Shown here: positions 3,810 through 47,012 of the stretch, one piece after another
How the letters are laid out: the number at the start of each line of letters is the position of its first letter
Numbering within the stretch: the first letter of the stretch is position 1
NCBI GenBank assembly: GCA_963745035.1
Contig: CAVUVW010000026.1
Coordinates: forward strand, 1-64,000
Length of the DNA stretch: 64,000 nt
Reading direction: 5' to 3'
From: an uncultured delta proteobacterium
GTDB lineage: Bacteria > Desulfobacterota > Binatia > UBA9968
Notes under the pieces: model-generated
The model's input: only the letters and a program-made list of their open reading frames with translations
What the model was told of the DNA's origin: nothing
The model's database searches: none
Translations under genes and position numbers: made by a program

Positions 3810-4604
3810 TCAGGAAGCTTTTTCCCACTTATCGACGTCGACTTCCCAGCCTTTGGTTTGCGATAGATCCAGCGCGTTGCCTTCCGGATCGCGGAAGCGA
3901 AACTCGGAGTAGGGACGGGTCGAGGGACGCGGCGCGATCTTGAGCACGCTGCTCAGCTCGGCCATCGTCGCCTGCATTCGATCGCTCAAAAAACCGATGT
4001 GGTTGATGCCGAATCTGGGCTCGTGTCCTTCGATCGGGTTGTAAAAAGGATGAATGGCGAGATTGGTTTGGCCGTCGGCGCAGAAGCGATTGCCGCGGCC
4101 TTGCTGCCGTCGGAGATAGCTCGACGGCACTTCGCGCAAGCCGAAAACCTGCGTGTAGAAGCGCAGCATCATTTCGGGGTCGAGGGCGTTATAGGCGATG
4201 TGACGGACGCGTGGAAACGCCTTCTGTTTGTTTGCCGGGACGCCGAAGCCTTTGGTCGACACGCTCACCGGCAGACATTCCGGATCGTGTATTCTGATCT
4301 CACCGTGGTGCACGTCGTTCGGTTCCTGAAGAATCATGCCGCGTGGATTGAGCGCGAGAAACTTCCCCTTCACCGCTTCGAGATCGTCGACCTCCAGGCC
4401 GACGTGGTGAAGGCCAAGATCCATCTTCATCTCGCCAAGCTCGGGTCGTCTTTTAAAAAAAGTCAGATTATAAAATCCGTCCGTGACGGAGACATCACCC
4501 TCGGGGGATCGACCTAGCTCCTCCGTTCCGAGAAAGCGGCGATAAAAGTCTGCGAGCTTTTCCGGCTCATCGGCGAGATAGGCAACGTAGCGCAGTGTGG
4601 CCAT
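3810..4604 (-). CDS. VOC/glyoxalase family protein (two domains)
   Basis: Duplicated VOC motifs: GLHHVGLEV..DPE and GINHIGF..RDPEGN. Confidence 0.9.
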   Translation of the reverse strand: MATLRYVAYLADEPEKLADFYRRFLGTEELGRSPEGDVSVTDGFYNLTFFKRRPELGEMKMDLGLHHVGLEVDDLEAVKGKFLALNPRGMILQEPNDVHHGEIRIHDPECLPVSVSTKGFGVPANKQKAFPRVRHIAYNALDPEMMLRFYTQVFGLREVPSSYLRRQQGRGNRFCADGQTNLAIHPFYNPIEGHEPRFGINHIGFLSDRMQATMAELSSVLKIAPRPSTRPYSEFRFRDPEGNALDLSQTKGWEVDVDKWEKAS

Positions 4605-42250: not shown

Positions 42251-42727
42251 TTGAAGAGAGTGAGAAGCACAGTGGGTCAAGCGCGCTATCTGGCGGCCGT
42301 GTTGTACGCAAGCGTTCTGCTGTTCGCCGTGTTCGTTCACGGCCAAGCCGTCGCTCCGGCGATTACAGTTTATCAGACGCCCACCTGAGGCTGTTGCTCC
42401 GCGTGGGTGGGTCACCTGCGAGCCAGCGGATTTAAGATCGACAAGAAGGATGTGTTCGGCAAGAAGCTTGCCGACATCAAGCACCAACTTGGAGTCCCCG
42501 AGCAGCTGCGCTCCTGTCATACCGCCTTGGTTGGCGGCTATGTGATCGAAGGGCATGTGCCTGCTGATCTGATCTACAAACTGCTAAAGGACAAGCCGCA
42601 GATTGTTGGCTTGGCGGTCCCGGGAATGCCCATCGGCTCGCCGGGCATGGAAGGCGGAAAACCGGAGCCGTATGACGTTTTCGCGTTCGACAAAAGCGGG
42701 CGCGCGACGGTTTACGCAAAGAGATAA
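42251..42727 (+). CDS. DUF411 periplasmic metal-binding protein, putative selenoprotein (UGA at 42386-42388)
   Basis: ORFs 42182-42388 and 42407-42727 are in frame; readthrough gives TVYQTPT-U-GCCSAWVGHL...SCHTA...EGHVP...PGMPIGSPGME; start codon approximate. Confidence 0.82.
42396..42423 (+). promoter_or_regulatory. Putative bacterial SECIS hairpin
   Basis: GCT-c-CGC-gt-GGGTG-[GGT]-CACCT-GCG-AGC; loop begins 21 nt after the UGA. Confidence 0.55.
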
Positions 42728-42761: not shown

Positions 42762-43754
42762 ATGAGAAAACTGGTTGCAATGATCGCCGGCGTGGTCCTC
42801 CTGGCTCTGACTGTCCCATCAATTTTTGCCCAGGAAAAGAAAAATCTGCGCATGGTGTTCGTGAGTCTTGCCTGGAACAGCGAAATTCCTTTTCGCGTGG
42901 CGCTGGCGCGCGGTTTTTTCAAGCAGCAGGGGCTGCAGGTCGAACCGATTCTGATCCGCGGCGGGCCGGCCGCGATCGCGGCGTTGGTTTCGGGCGAGGT
43001 CGATTATGCCGCCATCGGCGGAGCCCAGGCGGTCTTTCGCAGCCGCGCCCGCGGTTTGGATTTGTCGATCATCGGCTGCACGTCGAGCACGACCAACTAC
43101 ATTCTTCTCGGCAACAAGCAGACGCGCACGATAGAAGACCTCAAAGGCAAGACCATCGGCATCACCGGCGCCGGAACCTATTCCGAATTCGCCATGAAGG
43201 CCTTTCTCAAGAAATCCAATATCAATCCCGAAAAAGACGTCGTTCTGCGCGCCATCGGCGGCACCGTGCTGCGCGCCGCGGCCATCGAGAAGGGAATCAT
43301 CGCGGCGGCGCCGTTCTCGCCTGAAGACGGAGTGCGGCTGATCAAGGCCGGCTATTCGGTCATCAGCAACCTCAGCGAATCATTGGGCATCCCGCAGAAT
43401 ATTCTCGTCTCCCGGAACGAAGTCTTGGAAAAATATCCCGAGACTACCAAGCGCGTGCTCAAGGCCTACATCCAAGGAATCAATTTGGCGAAGTTCAACA
43501 AGAAGGAGGCGATCAAGGCGGGCTACGAGTCCGGTCTCCAGGGCGAACCGGACATCGTCAGCGCGGCCTGGGACCTGTACGCGCCGGGCCTCACTTCCGA
43601 CCTCTCGATCGCCACCGCCGGCCTGCAGCAGATGCTCGACGAAGATATTCGCGCCGGCCTGCTGGACAAGAACTTCACCCTGGACCGGGTGATCAACGAC
43701 CGCATTCTCAAGATCGCACAGCAGGAGCTGCGAGCCGAGGGACGGATCAAGTAA
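42762..43754 (+). CDS. ABC substrate-binding protein, NitT/TauT type
   Basis: Signal peptide; GFFKQQGL, DLKGKTIGITGAG. Confidence 0.9.
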   Translation: MRKLVAMIAGVVLLALTVPSIFAQEKKNLRMVFVSLAWNSEIPFRVALARGFFKQQGLQVEPILIRGGPAAIAALVSGEVDYAAIGGAQAVFRSRARGLDLSIIGCTSSTTNYILLGNKQTRTIEDLKGKTIGITGAGTYSEFAMKAFLKKSNINPEKDVVLRAIGGTVLRAAAIEKGIIAAAPFSPEDGVRLIKAGYSVISNLSESLGIPQNILVSRNEVLEKYPETTKRVLKAYIQGINLAKFNKKEAIKAGYESGLQGEPDIVSAAWDLYAPGLTSDLSIATAGLQQMLDEDIRAGLLDKNFTLDRVINDRILKIAQQELRAEGRIK

Positions 43755-43756
43755 GC

Positions 43757-44185
43757 ATGGGCGAGGAACGCGCTTTCGCGGCGCCGGCCCCGCAAATTGC
43801 GCTACGGCAGGTTGGAGCGGTCCGAGCTGGAGCGCTGGAGTACTGGACTGTTGGCTGGCAAGTGGAGAATACGGGAAAGCAGCCGCTCAAGATCTTGGCG
43901 GCGCGTTTACCGCACGGGCAATTCAAGGCGGAAGAGACGCGCTTTGAGCCGCCGCTCGATCTAGCGCCCCGCGCGCACCAACGATTTCAAACATCGGTGC
44001 GCTGCAATGAGCCGCGCGGACTGGTGACCGAGAACGCGTTCGTCATCTTCCATGTGATTTGGTCCGGCGAATCATGGCGCATTTTCGCGCGCCTGCGCGT
44101 TGAAGTTGATGGCGGCGGCATGCCGAAGGCGGCAACCGAATCTATTACCACGCAGAAAGTCGGGTTCTCGGGAGTAAGCTCGTAG
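43757..44185 (+). CDS. Hypothetical protein
   Basis: 142-aa ORF starting 2 nt after the upstream stop; coding-like codon usage. Confidence 0.65.
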   Translation: MGEERAFAAPAPQIALRQVGAVRAGALEYWTVGWQVENTGKQPLKILAARLPHGQFKAEETRFEPPLDLAPRAHQRFQTSVRCNEPRGLVTENAFVIFHVIWSGESWRIFARLRVEVDGGGMPKAATESITTQKVGFSGVSS

Positions 44186-44238
44186 TAGAAACATATCGCT
44201 TATTACACGACTTGCTGCACTCACAGCGCCGTTAGCCA

Positions 44239-44270
44239 CGTCATTCCCGCATGCTTTAGCGGGAATCCAG
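44239..44270. repeat. dRS3-like palindrome CGTCATTCCCGC...GCGGGAATCCAG
   Basis: ATTCCCGC-atgcttta-GCGGGAAT. Confidence 0.65.
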
Positions 44271-44321
44271 GCGAGCTTTGATGAAATCCAAAGTGAATGT
44301 TCGGTGACATCGGGGATCAAA

Positions 44322-44543
44322 ATGGCTGACAAAGAAAAAGACCTTTACATCCTTCAGCGCATGCGCGGCTGACACAACAATTGAGGCGTCGGCTTCGAAG
44401 AGACCACGGGTATGGTCTCCAATGCGGTGAAGATGAGCGAGAAAGAAGTGATCGCGGCGCTCAAGCGCCTGCGCGCAGAGCACAGCGACGATCCGGAATA
44501 CAAGAAGCTGCGGAAAGATCTACCGAAGGAGTGGCCGATTTAA
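44322..44543 (+). CDS. Putative 73-aa selenoprotein with two UGA codons (G-U-H-N-N-U-G), unknown family
   Basis: GGGGA RBS, ATG at 44322, TGA at 44370 and 44382 in frame, TAA at 44541; MADKEKDLYILQRMRGUHNNUGVGFEETTGMVSNAVKMSEKEVIAALKRLRAEHSDDPEYKKLRKDLPKEWPI. Confidence 0.68.
44400..44419 (+). promoter_or_regulatory. Putative bacterial SECIS hairpin
   Basis: Perfect stem GAGACCA-[CGGGTA]-TGGTCTC; loop begins 22 nt after the second UGA. Confidence 0.6.
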
Positions 44544-44681
44544 GCCTTGGTGGTCAGTTGCCGGAGGGACGTAGTCAGTTCGGCTGGGCACAACAGCTTC
44601 CCCCAATTAAGCGCAGAATGTCATTCTGAGGCGGAGCCGAAGAATCTGCTTTTGATAGGGAAGCCGTTTTGCAAACCGCGC

Positions 44682-45440
44682 TTAGGTAGCGGAAAGCTTC
44701 ACTTTCGGCTGCCGCAGATTCAGATCCTTCACGCCGCCCCAGAATTCCCTCTTACCCGTCATCGCCTGAACGTGGCCGTCCCATTCCAACGTGAACGCGG
44801 TCAGGCCGAGCTTCACCGCGGCGCGTACTTTGTCTTGCGTCGCATCATCGATAGCCAGTTGCCGAATCGCGTCGATCTGCCTGCTGCCGTGGCCTTCGTC
44901 CTCCTCGGCATGGAGCTGGTAAGTTTCCGCGGCGCGCGGCGAAAAGCCGTAGTGGCCGGTAAGCTCGCGATAGACTTTTTCGGAAATTTTCCCGGCGCCG
45001 CCGAGCTGGCTCTCGACGAAAGCGAGCATGGCCACGCCTTCGAGGGCTGAGCGGCGCTGGCAGCAGCCGATGATCATTTCGATGGCCGCGAGTGTTCCCG
45101 GCGCCGGCTCGGCGTTGTCGGCATCCTCGCGCGAGATGCCGCCTTCTTCGAGAAACTGGAACATGATGTCCATGTGCGTTCGTTTGCCGCCCAGCTCTTC
45201 CATGAAGTTTTCCAGCACCGTGTCCATGACCGCGTACTCTTTCGCGGAGACGGCATTGACCGCCATATATCCGAAGAAGATCGGGTTGGTGCGCACTCTC
45301 AAGTAATGCTGCACTTCGCCGAGAATAATCTGCTCGCGGCTCCAGCGATGCTTGATGATGCCGTCGAACCAGGGATGCTGCTCCATCGGCACCTCGGCCG
45401 CATAGCCCCAAAGCTCGTCGATAAACTTCTCCGGCTTCAT
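44682..45440 (-). CDS. Haem-oxygenase-like iron-containing redox enzyme (PqqC/TenA/CADD fold)
   Basis: HPWF, ENFMEE....H, VESQ, HAEEDEGH. Confidence 0.82.
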   Translation of the reverse strand: MKPEKFIDELWGYAAEVPMEQHPWFDGIIKHRWSREQIILGEVQHYLRVRTNPIFFGYMAVNAVSAKEYAVMDTVLENFMEELGGKRTHMDIMFQFLEEGGISREDADNAEPAPGTLAAIEMIIGCCQRRSALEGVAMLAFVESQLGGAGKISEKVYRELTGHYGFSPRAAETYQLHAEEDEGHGSRQIDAIRQLAIDDATQDKVRAAVKLGLTAFTLEWDGHVQAMTGKREFWGGVKDLNLRQPKVKLSAT

Positions 45441-45636: not shown

Positions 45637-45712
45637 GAGCCGTTAGCTCAGTCGGTAGAGCATCTGCCTTTTAAGCAGAGGGTCGCCGGTTCGAATCCGG
45701 CACGGCTCACCA
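45637..45712 (+). tRNA. tRNA-Lys (TTT)
   Basis: GAGCCGT/ACGGCTC acceptor stem, TCTGC-CTTTTAA-GCAGA anticodon arm, GGTTCGAATCC T arm, encoded CCA. Confidence 0.97.
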
Positions 45713-45716
45713 GCAC

Positions 45717-45794
45717 GTCCCCGTCGTCTAGCTCGGCCCAGGACACCGGCCTTTCACGCCGATAACACGGGTTCAAATCCCGTCGGGGACGCCA
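45717..45794 (+). tRNA. tRNA-Glu (TTC)
   Basis: GTCCCCG/CGGGGAC acceptor stem, CGGC-CTTTCAC-GCCG anticodon arm, GGTTCAAATCC T arm, encoded CCA. Confidence 0.97.
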
Positions 45795-45797
45795 AAC
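45749..45797 (+). repeat. attL core (49 bp, 3' half of tRNA-Glu)
   Basis: GCCTTTCACGCCGATAACACGGGTTCAAATCCCGTCGGGGACGCCAAAC, identical to 60184-60232. Confidence 0.95.
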
Positions 45798-45821
45798 AAT
45801 CAAGCACTTGCCGCTGATTCT

Positions 45822-46963
45822 TCACTCTCGGTTTTTTCTTGGGAGCAGTGTCGCGGAGAAACTTTGCAAAGCCGCTTTCAGGTCCGCCTTGGTGAGATTC
45901 TGATATTTTTTGTGATGACGCTACGCTTGAATGACCCGCAGCTAACATCGCGGCAGCGGTCGGCATGCCAGCGGTTGCCCAGCGAGAAATGCGGCAATGG
46001 CGCAGATCGTGGAAAATGAAGTCTTTGATTTTTGCTTCCCTGCACGCTTTGCGGAAGTGATATTCAAACTTCAACTTGTCCATCGGCTGACCGTCCATCG
46101 TTAGAACCGAGATCGCCGACATTCGGGAGCTCTGCGGCGCTCTGCCTGCAACTCCGCAATCAGCGCTTTCAGTTCGGGCGTGAAGACCGGGACTGCTTGC
46201 GGCGTCCCGGTTTTTCCGCGGCCGTTTTGTAGTTCAATGATTCCCTCGCGCAAATCGATTTCGCTCCAGGTCAGACGGAACAAATCCGAGCGGGACAACG
46301 CGGTTTCCCATGCGAGACAATGGCGTCTTCGAGCCACGTCGGGCATTTTTCCAGCAAGGTCGCGAAACTCTTTGTCGGTGAGCATCCGGTTCCGGTCGCT
46401 CTCTTTGTGCATCTCGAACTTCGTCACCTTGTGGACGAATCCCTTTGTCAGGGCGAAGCGCAGAAACTTTCGCAGCGTTCCGACTTCTTTGTTGATGGTC
46501 GTTTGTGAAACCACTTTCTCGGACTCTTCGCCGTGCTTGATGATTTTTTGCTTTGTTCGCTTTTCCCGATAGCCGATAACATCATCGTCACAGATTTGCG
46601 CGATTAGCTTTGAGCCGAAAAGCTTTTCCAGCGGCTTTAGGTGCCACGTCGAAACTGATTTCATTGACTCCGGGCATTGCGCAACGAACTTCGAGAACGT
46701 CATCCCCCTGGCGGTGCGCTTTTGCTTTATCTCATCGAAATCGACTTCATGGGAATTTTTCTTGTCAATGTCGATAGACCTTCTGAATAGGCTGCTTCTC
46801 ATTCTTCCCGAGCGCGAACTTCCGGCTGAACGTGTTGCCAGTCCGTGAATTGGCCGTAATAGCGCGTTCTCGGCTTTCCTGACGCCACGTAGCTGCGTCG
46901 AAACAAACGCGGGACGATATTCTCGTCCCCGTCGAAACGAATCCGTTCCGCCTTCTCCTTCAT
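45822..46963 (-). CDS. int: Tyrosine recombinase/integrase of element 1 (several frameshifts; ends approximate)
   Basis: TINKEV..LR, ETALSRSDL, FHDLRH, AGH and (after frame correction) KKYQNL catalytic motifs. Confidence 0.88.
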
Positions 46964-47012
46964 CGCTTTGCCCCTTTCCGTTGAGCACGCCTGTCTTGCT
47001 GCCCCTACCTAC

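Follow-up and report, generated by a model that had tools for sequence, protein, structure and literature searches.

The 64,000-nucleotide (nt) stretch of an uncultured delta proteobacterium analysed here (contig CAVUVW010000026.1; hereafter the window) contains a 73-codon reading frame interrupted by two TGA codons that is, in all likelihood, a genuine but overlooked gene encoding a real selenoprotein with two selenocysteine (Sec, U) residues and belonging to an undescribed family. Such a gene had been proposed in a preliminary description made from the sequence alone; its ATG, both TGAs, the TAA, the ribosome-binding site and both hairpins could be read in the sequence at the positions given there (Table 1). 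When TGA is translated as Sec, the product (the di-Sec protein) comprises 73 residues without any cysteine, with the motif G-U-H-N-N-U-G at positions 16-22 and 52 sense codons between the second UGA (UGA2) and the TAA. Under translation table 11, the sole open reading frame (ORF) in this frame is a 43-amino-acid (aa) piece (44412..44543) starting at Met31. The source genome has a size of 7.43 Mb in 28 contigs, and the window is situated on its contig C26.

Table 1. Features of the di-Sec gene and its neighbours (positions in the window; the 129 loci used for the neighbourhood counts come from overlapping sets, and 8 of them from flagged submissions)
Feature	Position	Strand	Remarks
p142	43757..44185	+	142-aa beta-sandwich protein; adjoins the di-Sec gene 5' in 126/129 loci
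Shine-Dalgarno-like GGGGA	44312..44316	+	5 nt 5' of the ATG (44322-44324); read directly in the sequence
di-Sec coding sequence	44322..44543	+	73 aa, predicted Sec17 and Sec21; stop TAA 44541-44543
UGA1 (predicted Sec17)	44370..44372	+	TGA in 48/48 aligned homologues
UGA2 (predicted Sec21)	44382..44384	+	TGA in 48/48 aligned homologues
Hairpin 1 UGAGGC/GUCG/GCUUCG	44382..44397	+	RNAalifold consensus; the weaker hairpin; UGA2 inside the 5' arm
Hairpin 2 GAGACCA/CGGGUA/UGGUCUC	44400..44419	+	perfect 7-bp stem-loop of selenocysteine insertion sequence (SECIS) type
HDO (heme-oxygenase-like dimetal protein, TenA/PqqC superfamily), CADD-like, 252 aa	44682..45440	-	convergent 3' in 118/129 loci, 64-93% identity

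In a comparison of the read-through protein with 61 genomes (the source genome and 60 relatives, which represent three families within one order), 49 gave a match, with identities down to 45%, and exactly two in-frame TGAs were present at 49 of the 50 matched places, the 50th beginning at a contig end. The codon alignment comprised 48 full homologues, with one truncated copy and one without start codon left out; as three of its rows stem from genomes flagged as unpublished, the ratio of nonsynonymous to synonymous differences (pN/pS) was calculated on the remaining 45 rows. Codons 1-16, in front of UGA1, showed the usual synonymous scatter (Ile10 encoded by ATA, ATC or ATT; Leu11 by six codons; Gly16 by three), and codons 4-16 had an in-frame pN/pS of 0.42 compared with 1.30 and 1.71 in the shifted frames (codons 4-15). 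The in-frame value was 0.44 for codons 18-20, between the UGAs, and 0.48 for codons 35-73, the latter versus 0.88 and 2.25 in the shifted frames (codons 35-72). According to this pattern, the regions before, between and after the UGAs evolve as one reading frame. Indeed, the segment G-L-G-F-E-E-T-T-G (codons 22-30) is near-invariant and lies entirely 5' of Met31; conservation is therefore not confined to the part after Met31, whereas such a confinement would have refuted the proposal according to the preliminary description, and its postulate of a real overlooked gene of a new UxxxU family, conserved on both sides of the UGAs, is borne out. In relatives, a GGAGG or AAGGA-type site occupies the corresponding position, 5' of an ATG or GTG start. 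A pseudogene or a frameshift as the origin of the interrupted frame was ruled out by the conservation. It weighs against these counts that the related genomes are kin, so that the independence of the single observations is overstated.

A scan with one genome per species (185,579 species) yielded 216 stretches encoding relatives, of which 80 loci were kept as the basis of the variant counts: 77 have TGA at both sites (U/U), one is Cys/Cys, one is Cys/Sec and one is cut by a contig end. Retention of both TGAs here and in the 48 aligned homologues goes well beyond what chance would give. Most of the loci stem from metagenome-assembled genomes (MAGs) whose titles read Candidatus Binatia bacterium or uncultured delta proteobacterium, and some from genomes titled Chloroflexota, Limnocylindria, Acidobacteria or Verrucomicrobiia. 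The Cys/Cys locus (L121, Chloroflexota-titled MAG) carries TGT at both UGA sites, and the mixed locus (L150, Nocardioidaceae-titled MAG) carries TGC at the UGA1 site and TGA at the UGA2 site. Among 1.84 billion representative proteins searched with a profile, 123 matched: 86 are 43-aa ORFs starting at Met31, i.e. the gene-caller view of the Sec forms, and about 25 are complete proteins, 60-133 aa long, in which C-x-x-x-C coincides exactly with both Sec columns. Cys occupied both columns in every full-length distant homologue, and the UGA2 column in all distant homologues; neither Trp nor Gly nor Arg occurred there. At both Sec columns, 16 Cys/Cys proteins could be aligned, either full-length or shortened at the N-terminus, and the full-length ones of 71-73 aa aligned end to end with the Sec forms. 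Invariant across Sec and Cys forms were C/U17, C/U21, F25, T28, M31, R64, P68 and P72. Those Cys forms named by NCBI are each a 'hypothetical protein' of Thermoplasmata archaeon MAGs. Two expectations of the preliminary description were thus confirmed, namely TGA/TGA or Cys variants at both sites (the U/U loci, L121, L150 and the distant Cys/Cys homologues) and invisibility of the gene to gene callers. The comparison shows putative Sec and Cys to be interchangeable at both sites. A phylum-wide profile search, in which 14 candidates were scored per genome, found the family in 2 of 401 genomes, a figure not taken as evidence of absence.

Irregular copies were observed at two loci. L064 (G051:C3, ~4082-4210, minus strand) has kept both TGAs and has no start codon at the usual place; its p142 gene is located 3.8 kb away compared with about 0.45 kb usually, and an insertion appears to separate the pair. 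L136 (5001-5186) has likewise kept both TGAs, and its frame changes after about codon 62, indicating a frameshift or an assembly error.

The alignments bear directly on the possibility that solely the 43-aa ORF from Met31 (44412-44543) is made, with the UGAs as true stops and the upstream part acting as a leader peptide or regulatory RNA. This piece is the one that table 11 offers in the frame and that gene callers report (86 of the 123 profile matches), and the hairpins could in principle be regulatory; however, the stretches in front of UGA1, separating the two UGAs and leading from UGA2 up to Met31 are all under protein-level purifying selection in this frame, relatives have a ribosome-binding site ahead of the upstream ATG or GTG, Cys codons occupy TGA sites in L150 and L121, the 71-73-aa Cys/Cys proteins match the Sec forms over their entire length, and the predicted fold (see below) needs helix 1. 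Production of the short ORF only is thus highly improbable.

The selABCD machinery presupposed by the preliminary description was found in the source genome: selA (592 bits), selB (347 bits), selD (385 bits) and tRNA-Sec (76.7 bits) all scored over the curated cut-offs, and selD carries one in-frame TGA itself and hence encodes a selenoprotein as well. The genes selA, selB and selD lie in a row (G000:C17:315264-319742), with the tRNA-Sec gene about 52 kb off (C17:371273-371363). Within the set of 61 genomes, selA exceeded the cut-off in 56, the remaining five (G001, G009, G010, G027, G030) being 60-93% complete; the three tested genomes with U/U forms that are titled Chloroflexota all possess it as well. 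In G461, which carries the Cys/Cys variant, no selA was found, and neither selD nor tRNA-Sec exceeded the cut-off, as expected after loss of Sec. Speaking against Sec decoding, the genome that holds the Cys/TGA variant L150 (G465) gave the same negative result for selA, selD and tRNA-Sec at these cut-offs; this MAG comprises 2.7 Mb in more than 460 contigs and, as the L150 contig is only 2.9 kb long, mis-binning or incompleteness is possible. The objection that TGA forms might occur in genomes devoid of Sec machinery, raised in advance by the preliminary description, is therefore touched by L150/G465 alone, the three Chloroflexota-titled U/U genomes having selA.

An open frame under TGA as sense codon does not itself tell which residue is inserted, and one of the standard amino acids (Trp, Gly, Arg or Cys) might be inserted at the UGAs through an alternative code or near-cognate suppression. 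This is contradicted by the finding that TGA terminates this same gene in 19 of the 48 homologues, i.e. serves as an ordinary stop, and that the long genes selA and selB contain no in-frame TGA; an alternative genetic code was ruled out on the former ground. Moreover, TGA-free homologues always have Cys at these sites, the Sec machinery is present, and SECIS-type hairpins with frozen synonymous sites are located past the UGAs. Insertion of a standard amino acid is thus regarded as extremely improbable. Both UGAs (codons 17 and 21) appear to be decoded as Sec, in line with the known bacterial scheme.

The RNA following the UGAs was compared in an alignment of 88 distinct 99-nt segments, which excluded the flagged genomes as well as the Cys/Cys variant and two truncated copies. 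In the RNAalifold consensus, columns 22-26 pair with 33-37 (hairpin 1, extendable by 27-32) and columns 40-46 with 53-59 (hairpin 2). Under this fixed structure, 99.6% of 1144 cells can pair, and shifting of the 3' partners by 1-3 columns lowers this figure to 29-53%, a control that is biased, according to the tool's own warning, when the structure derives from the same sequences. Hairpin 1 was paired in 99.2% of the cells over the 88 sequences; the stem of hairpin 2 was kept in 88/88, with A-U or G-U as its top pair and one C-A mismatch. Hairpin 2 of the window folds at -9.2 kcal/mol, a value equalled by 1 of 200 shuffles.

Selection on these structures is indicated by the synonymous sites: synonymous divergence amounts to 0.124 in codons 22-34 versus about 0.6 elsewhere. 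The third positions in the hairpin 1 stem are frozen (Gly22 and Gly24 GGC only; Phe25 TTC in 44/45), as are those in the hairpin 2 stem (Glu27 GAG, Thr28 ACC and Val32 GTC only; Thr/Ala29 ending in G only), whereas those in loops and flanks are free (Leu23; Gly30 and Ser33, each with all four codons). L121, the Cys/Cys variant, can no longer form hairpin 1, and its GTT codon for Val32, the only one seen, gives a G-U pair in hairpin 2. Several results count against this picture. The covarying hairpin that the preliminary description had hoped for was not obtained: there was essentially no covariation, since the stems are invariant apart from a single compensatory change (CG to GC in hairpin 1 of L132) in 1 of the 88 sequences. 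The whole 70-nt stretch is hardly more stable than expected (z = -1.10; 26 of 200 shuffles equally stable), and hairpin 1 fails the bacterial SECIS (bSECIS) model in most sequences, its consensus loop CUCG having no G at position 1 or 2. With covariation near nil, the case for RNA selection rests on the frozen synonymous sites; based on these, the comparison shows two selected RNA hairpins following the UGAs.

The bSECIS model, as far as given in the portion covered of a May 2026 review (PMC13188914), comprises a loop of 3-9 nt with a G in its first two positions, a stem of 4-16 bp, a distance of 16-37 nt from UGA to loop and a folding energy of at most -7.5 kcal/mol. Hairpin 2 conforms with its 6-nt loop, G at position 2, 7 bp and -9.2 kcal/mol, and the spacing to its loop amounts to 22 nt for UGA2 and 34 nt for UGA1, both within the model. 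Hairpin 1 starts 9 nt past UGA1, and the distance of 14-15 nt to its loop narrowly misses the minimum of the model; it may act as a SECIS for UGA1 or form the lower portion of a single composite element. The suggestion of the preliminary description that one SECIS may serve both UGAs is compatible with both spacings of hairpin 2; as both hairpins are under selection, a role for each is favored, and a shared SECIS and two tandem elements are equally possible. Like the canonical bacterial SECIS (Escherichia coli fdhF type), the arrangement consists of a stem-loop within the coding sequence past the UGA, with a G in the apical loop; it differs in that two UGAs 12 nt apart are followed by a pair of adjacent conserved hairpins, with UGA2 located inside the first. 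In E. coli, the spacing obeys a strict 11-nt rule. A search of the window with Rfam at gathering thresholds yielded only two tRNAs, and none of its matches fell in the hairpin region.

The AlphaFold2 model, based on an alignment of 22 Sec and 16 Cys forms, has a predicted local distance difference test score (pLDDT) of 87.8 and a predicted template modelling (TM) score of 0.73 and shows four helices (residues 2-21, 25-35, 40-54, 58-65); both Sec residues are positioned in the last turn of helix 1, at i and i+4 and on the same face. Foldseek comparison of this model with the PDB gave no match at E <1, the weak rows being de novo helical bundles and helix-turn-helix (HTH) domains, and the Cys-form profile retrieved from the PDB sequences designed repeat proteins only (E about 0.01). 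NCBIfam release 20.0 contained no match to the di-Sec protein at E up to 10, and Pfam only a sub-threshold one (NirdL-like_HTH, E 0.038); for ten Cys forms, nothing exceeded the threshold in either collection. The earlier statement that the protein matches no family thus holds for Pfam, NCBIfam and the 119-family catalogue of 2026: a UxxxU motif is absent among the 119 prokaryotic selenoprotein families in Table 1 of the review (PMC13188914), and nothing relevant was found in the portion covered of BSepDB (2026), which is built on the same family lists. Full-text literature searches revealed no work on a UxxxU selenoprotein and none pairing Binatia with selenocysteine, an unlisted mention being possible.

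The nearest catalogued motifs, as judged from that Table 1, are two UxxU families and TsoB with UxxxxU (PMC13188914). The protein resembles NF041115 'metal-binding protein', FmdB (TIGR02605) and TsoB, as these are presented in the portion covered of the review, in having two close UGAs, Cys homologues and a presumed metal or redox role (PMC13188914). It differs from those double-Sec families in its UxxxU motif, in its gene neighbourhood and in the lack of any sequence relation: NF041115, TIGR02605 (FmdB), NF045694 (TsoB), NF045648 (MbdU) and TIGR04081 matched neither the di-Sec protein nor the ten Cys forms (E up to 1). Its di-Sec site lies in an alpha-helix of a four-helix protein, and not in the zinc-ribbon or rhodanese/DsbD context of the known double-Sec families. 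With the thioredoxin-fold CxxU/UxxC selenoproteins (Trx, Grx, SelW-like) it shares the small size, a two-residue redox motif and Cys homologues; in contrast to them it is all-helical, has Sec at both motif positions and is without a Pfam match. As far as checked, it represents an undescribed family with a helical UxxxU di-Sec site.

The helical fold also allows the small protein to be seen as a redox- or metal-sensing HTH regulator of the neighbouring genes, with the Sec/Cys pair as sensor. Several sub-threshold matches point in this direction: NirdL-like_HTH with the di-Sec protein (see above), sigma-factor region models (E 0.0021 and 0.037) and the Sta1 regulator (E 0.053) with the Cys forms, and LysR-type N-terminal DNA-binding domains and MntR among the top Foldseek rows, all at E >1; in the archaeal operon described below, the small gene of the Cys form comes first, a position often taken by autoregulators. 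None of the HTH matches reaches significance, however, and the net charge is unconserved and often strongly negative (median 0, range -7 to +5, in Sec forms; median -2, range -6 to 0, in Cys forms). Furthermore, the would-be DNA-reading helix (residues 40-54) is the most variable part of the protein, whereas the invariant residues cluster at the Sec pair and in the C-terminal tail L-R-x-x-L-P-x-x-[WF]-P. A regulatory role of this kind is thus unlikely.

The di-Sec gene belongs, as shown by comparison of the loci, to a three-gene module with p142 and HDO. Each of the three genes occurs in 49 of the 61 genomes with a near-identical presence pattern: all three are missing in ten genomes (G004, G006, G017, G023, G032, G036, G038, G039, G042, G046), including the one- and two-contig assemblies G038 and G039, and the four discordant genomes (G001, G009, G016, G020) consist of 540-710 contigs with the matches at contig ends. 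The AlphaFold2 model of p142 is an eight-strand beta sandwich (pLDDT 92.9); the protein has no sequence match in Pfam, NCBIfam or the PDB, and Foldseek retrieved only generic beta-sandwich structures with TM scores <0.5. Further upstream, an NMT1-type binding protein is kept in 54 of the 129 loci and a DUF411 gene in 27, both in closer relatives only; given the presence of DUF411 in just these 27 loci, a link to copper stays speculation. In the window, the DUF411 ORF (42407-42727) overlaps that of the NMT1/SsuA-like binding protein (listed TTG start at 42603, extending to 43754) by 125 nt, and the true start of the latter is probably located further downstream than 42603.

HDO matches PF14518 with 61.6 bits (cut-off 28.9) and PF03070 with 34.2 bits (cut-off 22), and its invariant residues are E42, H45, E81, E82, H89, E143, H177, D181 and H184; some of these Glu, His and Asp residues are probably metal ligands. 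It aligns over about 200 residues with CT610/CADD (1rcw; E 1.2e-12), i.e. belongs to the same heme-oxygenase-like fold family. CADD/CT610 (PDB 1rcw, 8va9) is described, in the portion covered of the source, as a self-sacrificing p-aminobenzoate synthase with Tyr27 as the sacrificial residue (PMC9522330). At this position, HDO has an invariant Phe (H-P-W-F in 38 sequences) where CADD has H-T-F-Y and archaeal relatives have H-P-F-V, and its score against the CADD family model TIGR04305 (58.7 bits) is under the cut-off of 200; in consequence, HDO is not considered to be a self-sacrificing p-aminobenzoate synthase of CADD type. Automatic annotation names it 'PQQ biosynthesis protein C' (JGI) or 'iron-containing redox enzyme family protein' (NCBI); identity with PqqC was ruled out, as no PqqC model of NCBIfam matched.

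The pairing with an enzyme of this class recurs among the Cys forms. In a metagenome set of 80 Cys-form loci (L153-L232), the Cys form is followed on the same strand by a 298-aa protein with zf-C2H2_9 and TENA_THI-4/Haem_oxygenas_2 domains in 73 loci, at a gap of 14-236 nt (median 23), and next by a Ta0938 metal-binding domain protein in 59; no p142 homologue was found in the 80 loci. The zf-TenA enzyme is homologous to the HDO of the window (hhalign 95.6%, E 1.2e-08, 188 columns), with which it shares the motifs H-P-[WF] and E-x-Q-H-[YF]-L-R. An example of this Thermoplasmata-type operon is L185:6001-7428, comprising a 71-aa CxxxC protein, zf-TenA/HDO and Ta0938, which seems to be unannotated as a unit.

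Taken as a mechanism, SelA, SelB, SelD and tRNA-Sec would decode both UGAs of a 73-residue cytoplasmic four-helix protein, directed by RNA structure within the coding sequence, with hairpin 2 at a permitted distance from both UGAs. The U-x-x-x-U pair, one helical turn apart at the C-terminal end of helix 1, would form the invariant functional site and be replaced by Cys-x-x-x-Cys in lineages without Sec, and the module of p142, di-Sec protein and HDO would be gained and lost as a unit. Since the pair is the only invariant feature alongside a few structural residues, it is probably the active site; and since the pairing with HDO has persisted in different domains of life and despite altered gene order, the di-Sec protein presumably works with this enzyme. 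A dedicated redox (diselenol/diselenide) or metal-handling partner of HDO is the tentative functional assignment, possible but not to be given even odds. It is weakened by the lack of a nearby HDO at L121 and L123, the two loci flanked by 5 kb on each side, by the convergent orientation of HDO, which is consequently not co-transcribed with the di-Sec gene, and by the deduction of the function solely from gene neighbourhood. A more specific and rather doubtful proposal is that, from Binatia-type bacteria to Thermoplasmata archaea, the protein might be a dedicated co-substrate or radical/electron relay of an HDO without sacrificial tyrosine of its own, produced with a tandem or shared SECIS; if true, the selenol pair or the invariant Tyr60 would receive or quench the oxidising equivalent arising at the metal site of HDO, in a trans-acting version of the self-sacrificing chemistry of CADD.

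The gene would add to the known selenoproteins a family missed by standard annotation, the databases containing mainly its 43-aa fragment. This family has a wide distribution among the abundant, uncultured soil bacteria that bear the label Candidatus Binatia, and it occurs in Chloroflexota-labelled MAGs as well. Its two close UGAs and two frozen hairpins offer a natural system for the study of SelB/SECIS geometry and spacing rules. The reductants and the metal delivery of heme-oxygenase-like dimetal enzymes are poorly understood; the HDO partnership kept across the divide between bacteria and archaea points to an accessory factor for this enzyme class, and the archaeal Cys/Cys pair would be an easy entry to its biochemistry. 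No paper joining selenoproteins with heme-oxygenase-like or CADD enzymes was among the literature matches listed.

Coverage of the ORF by RNA-library contigs was restricted to a single partial match of 51 nt that contains 4 mismatches and 2 gaps (four soil/rhizosphere contig sets), which has no bearing on expression; near-identical contigs from the same four sets cover p142 and parts of the HDO gene. A search of sequencing runs gave 14 runs, 11 of them recorded as RNA, and none contained more than 0.20 of the sampled words. Scanning of 43600-44800 for promoters and terminators detected no promoter-like site and one terminator-like site, below the shuffle mean. The di-Sec gene is flanked by palindromic elements resembling repetitive extragenic palindromic (REP) sequences (44238-44275 and 44615-44652), whose 10-12-nt cores occur in 64, 74, 20 and 43 genome copies versus about 1-14 expected; these elements draw many unrelated RNA-library contigs with loose ends. 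Beyond HDO, genes for tRNA-Lys (45637-45712) and tRNA-Glu (45717-45794) are followed by a minus-strand integrase of phage type, which is divided between two overlapping ORFs (46101-46988 and 45754-46122) and probably marks a decayed site of integration beside the module.

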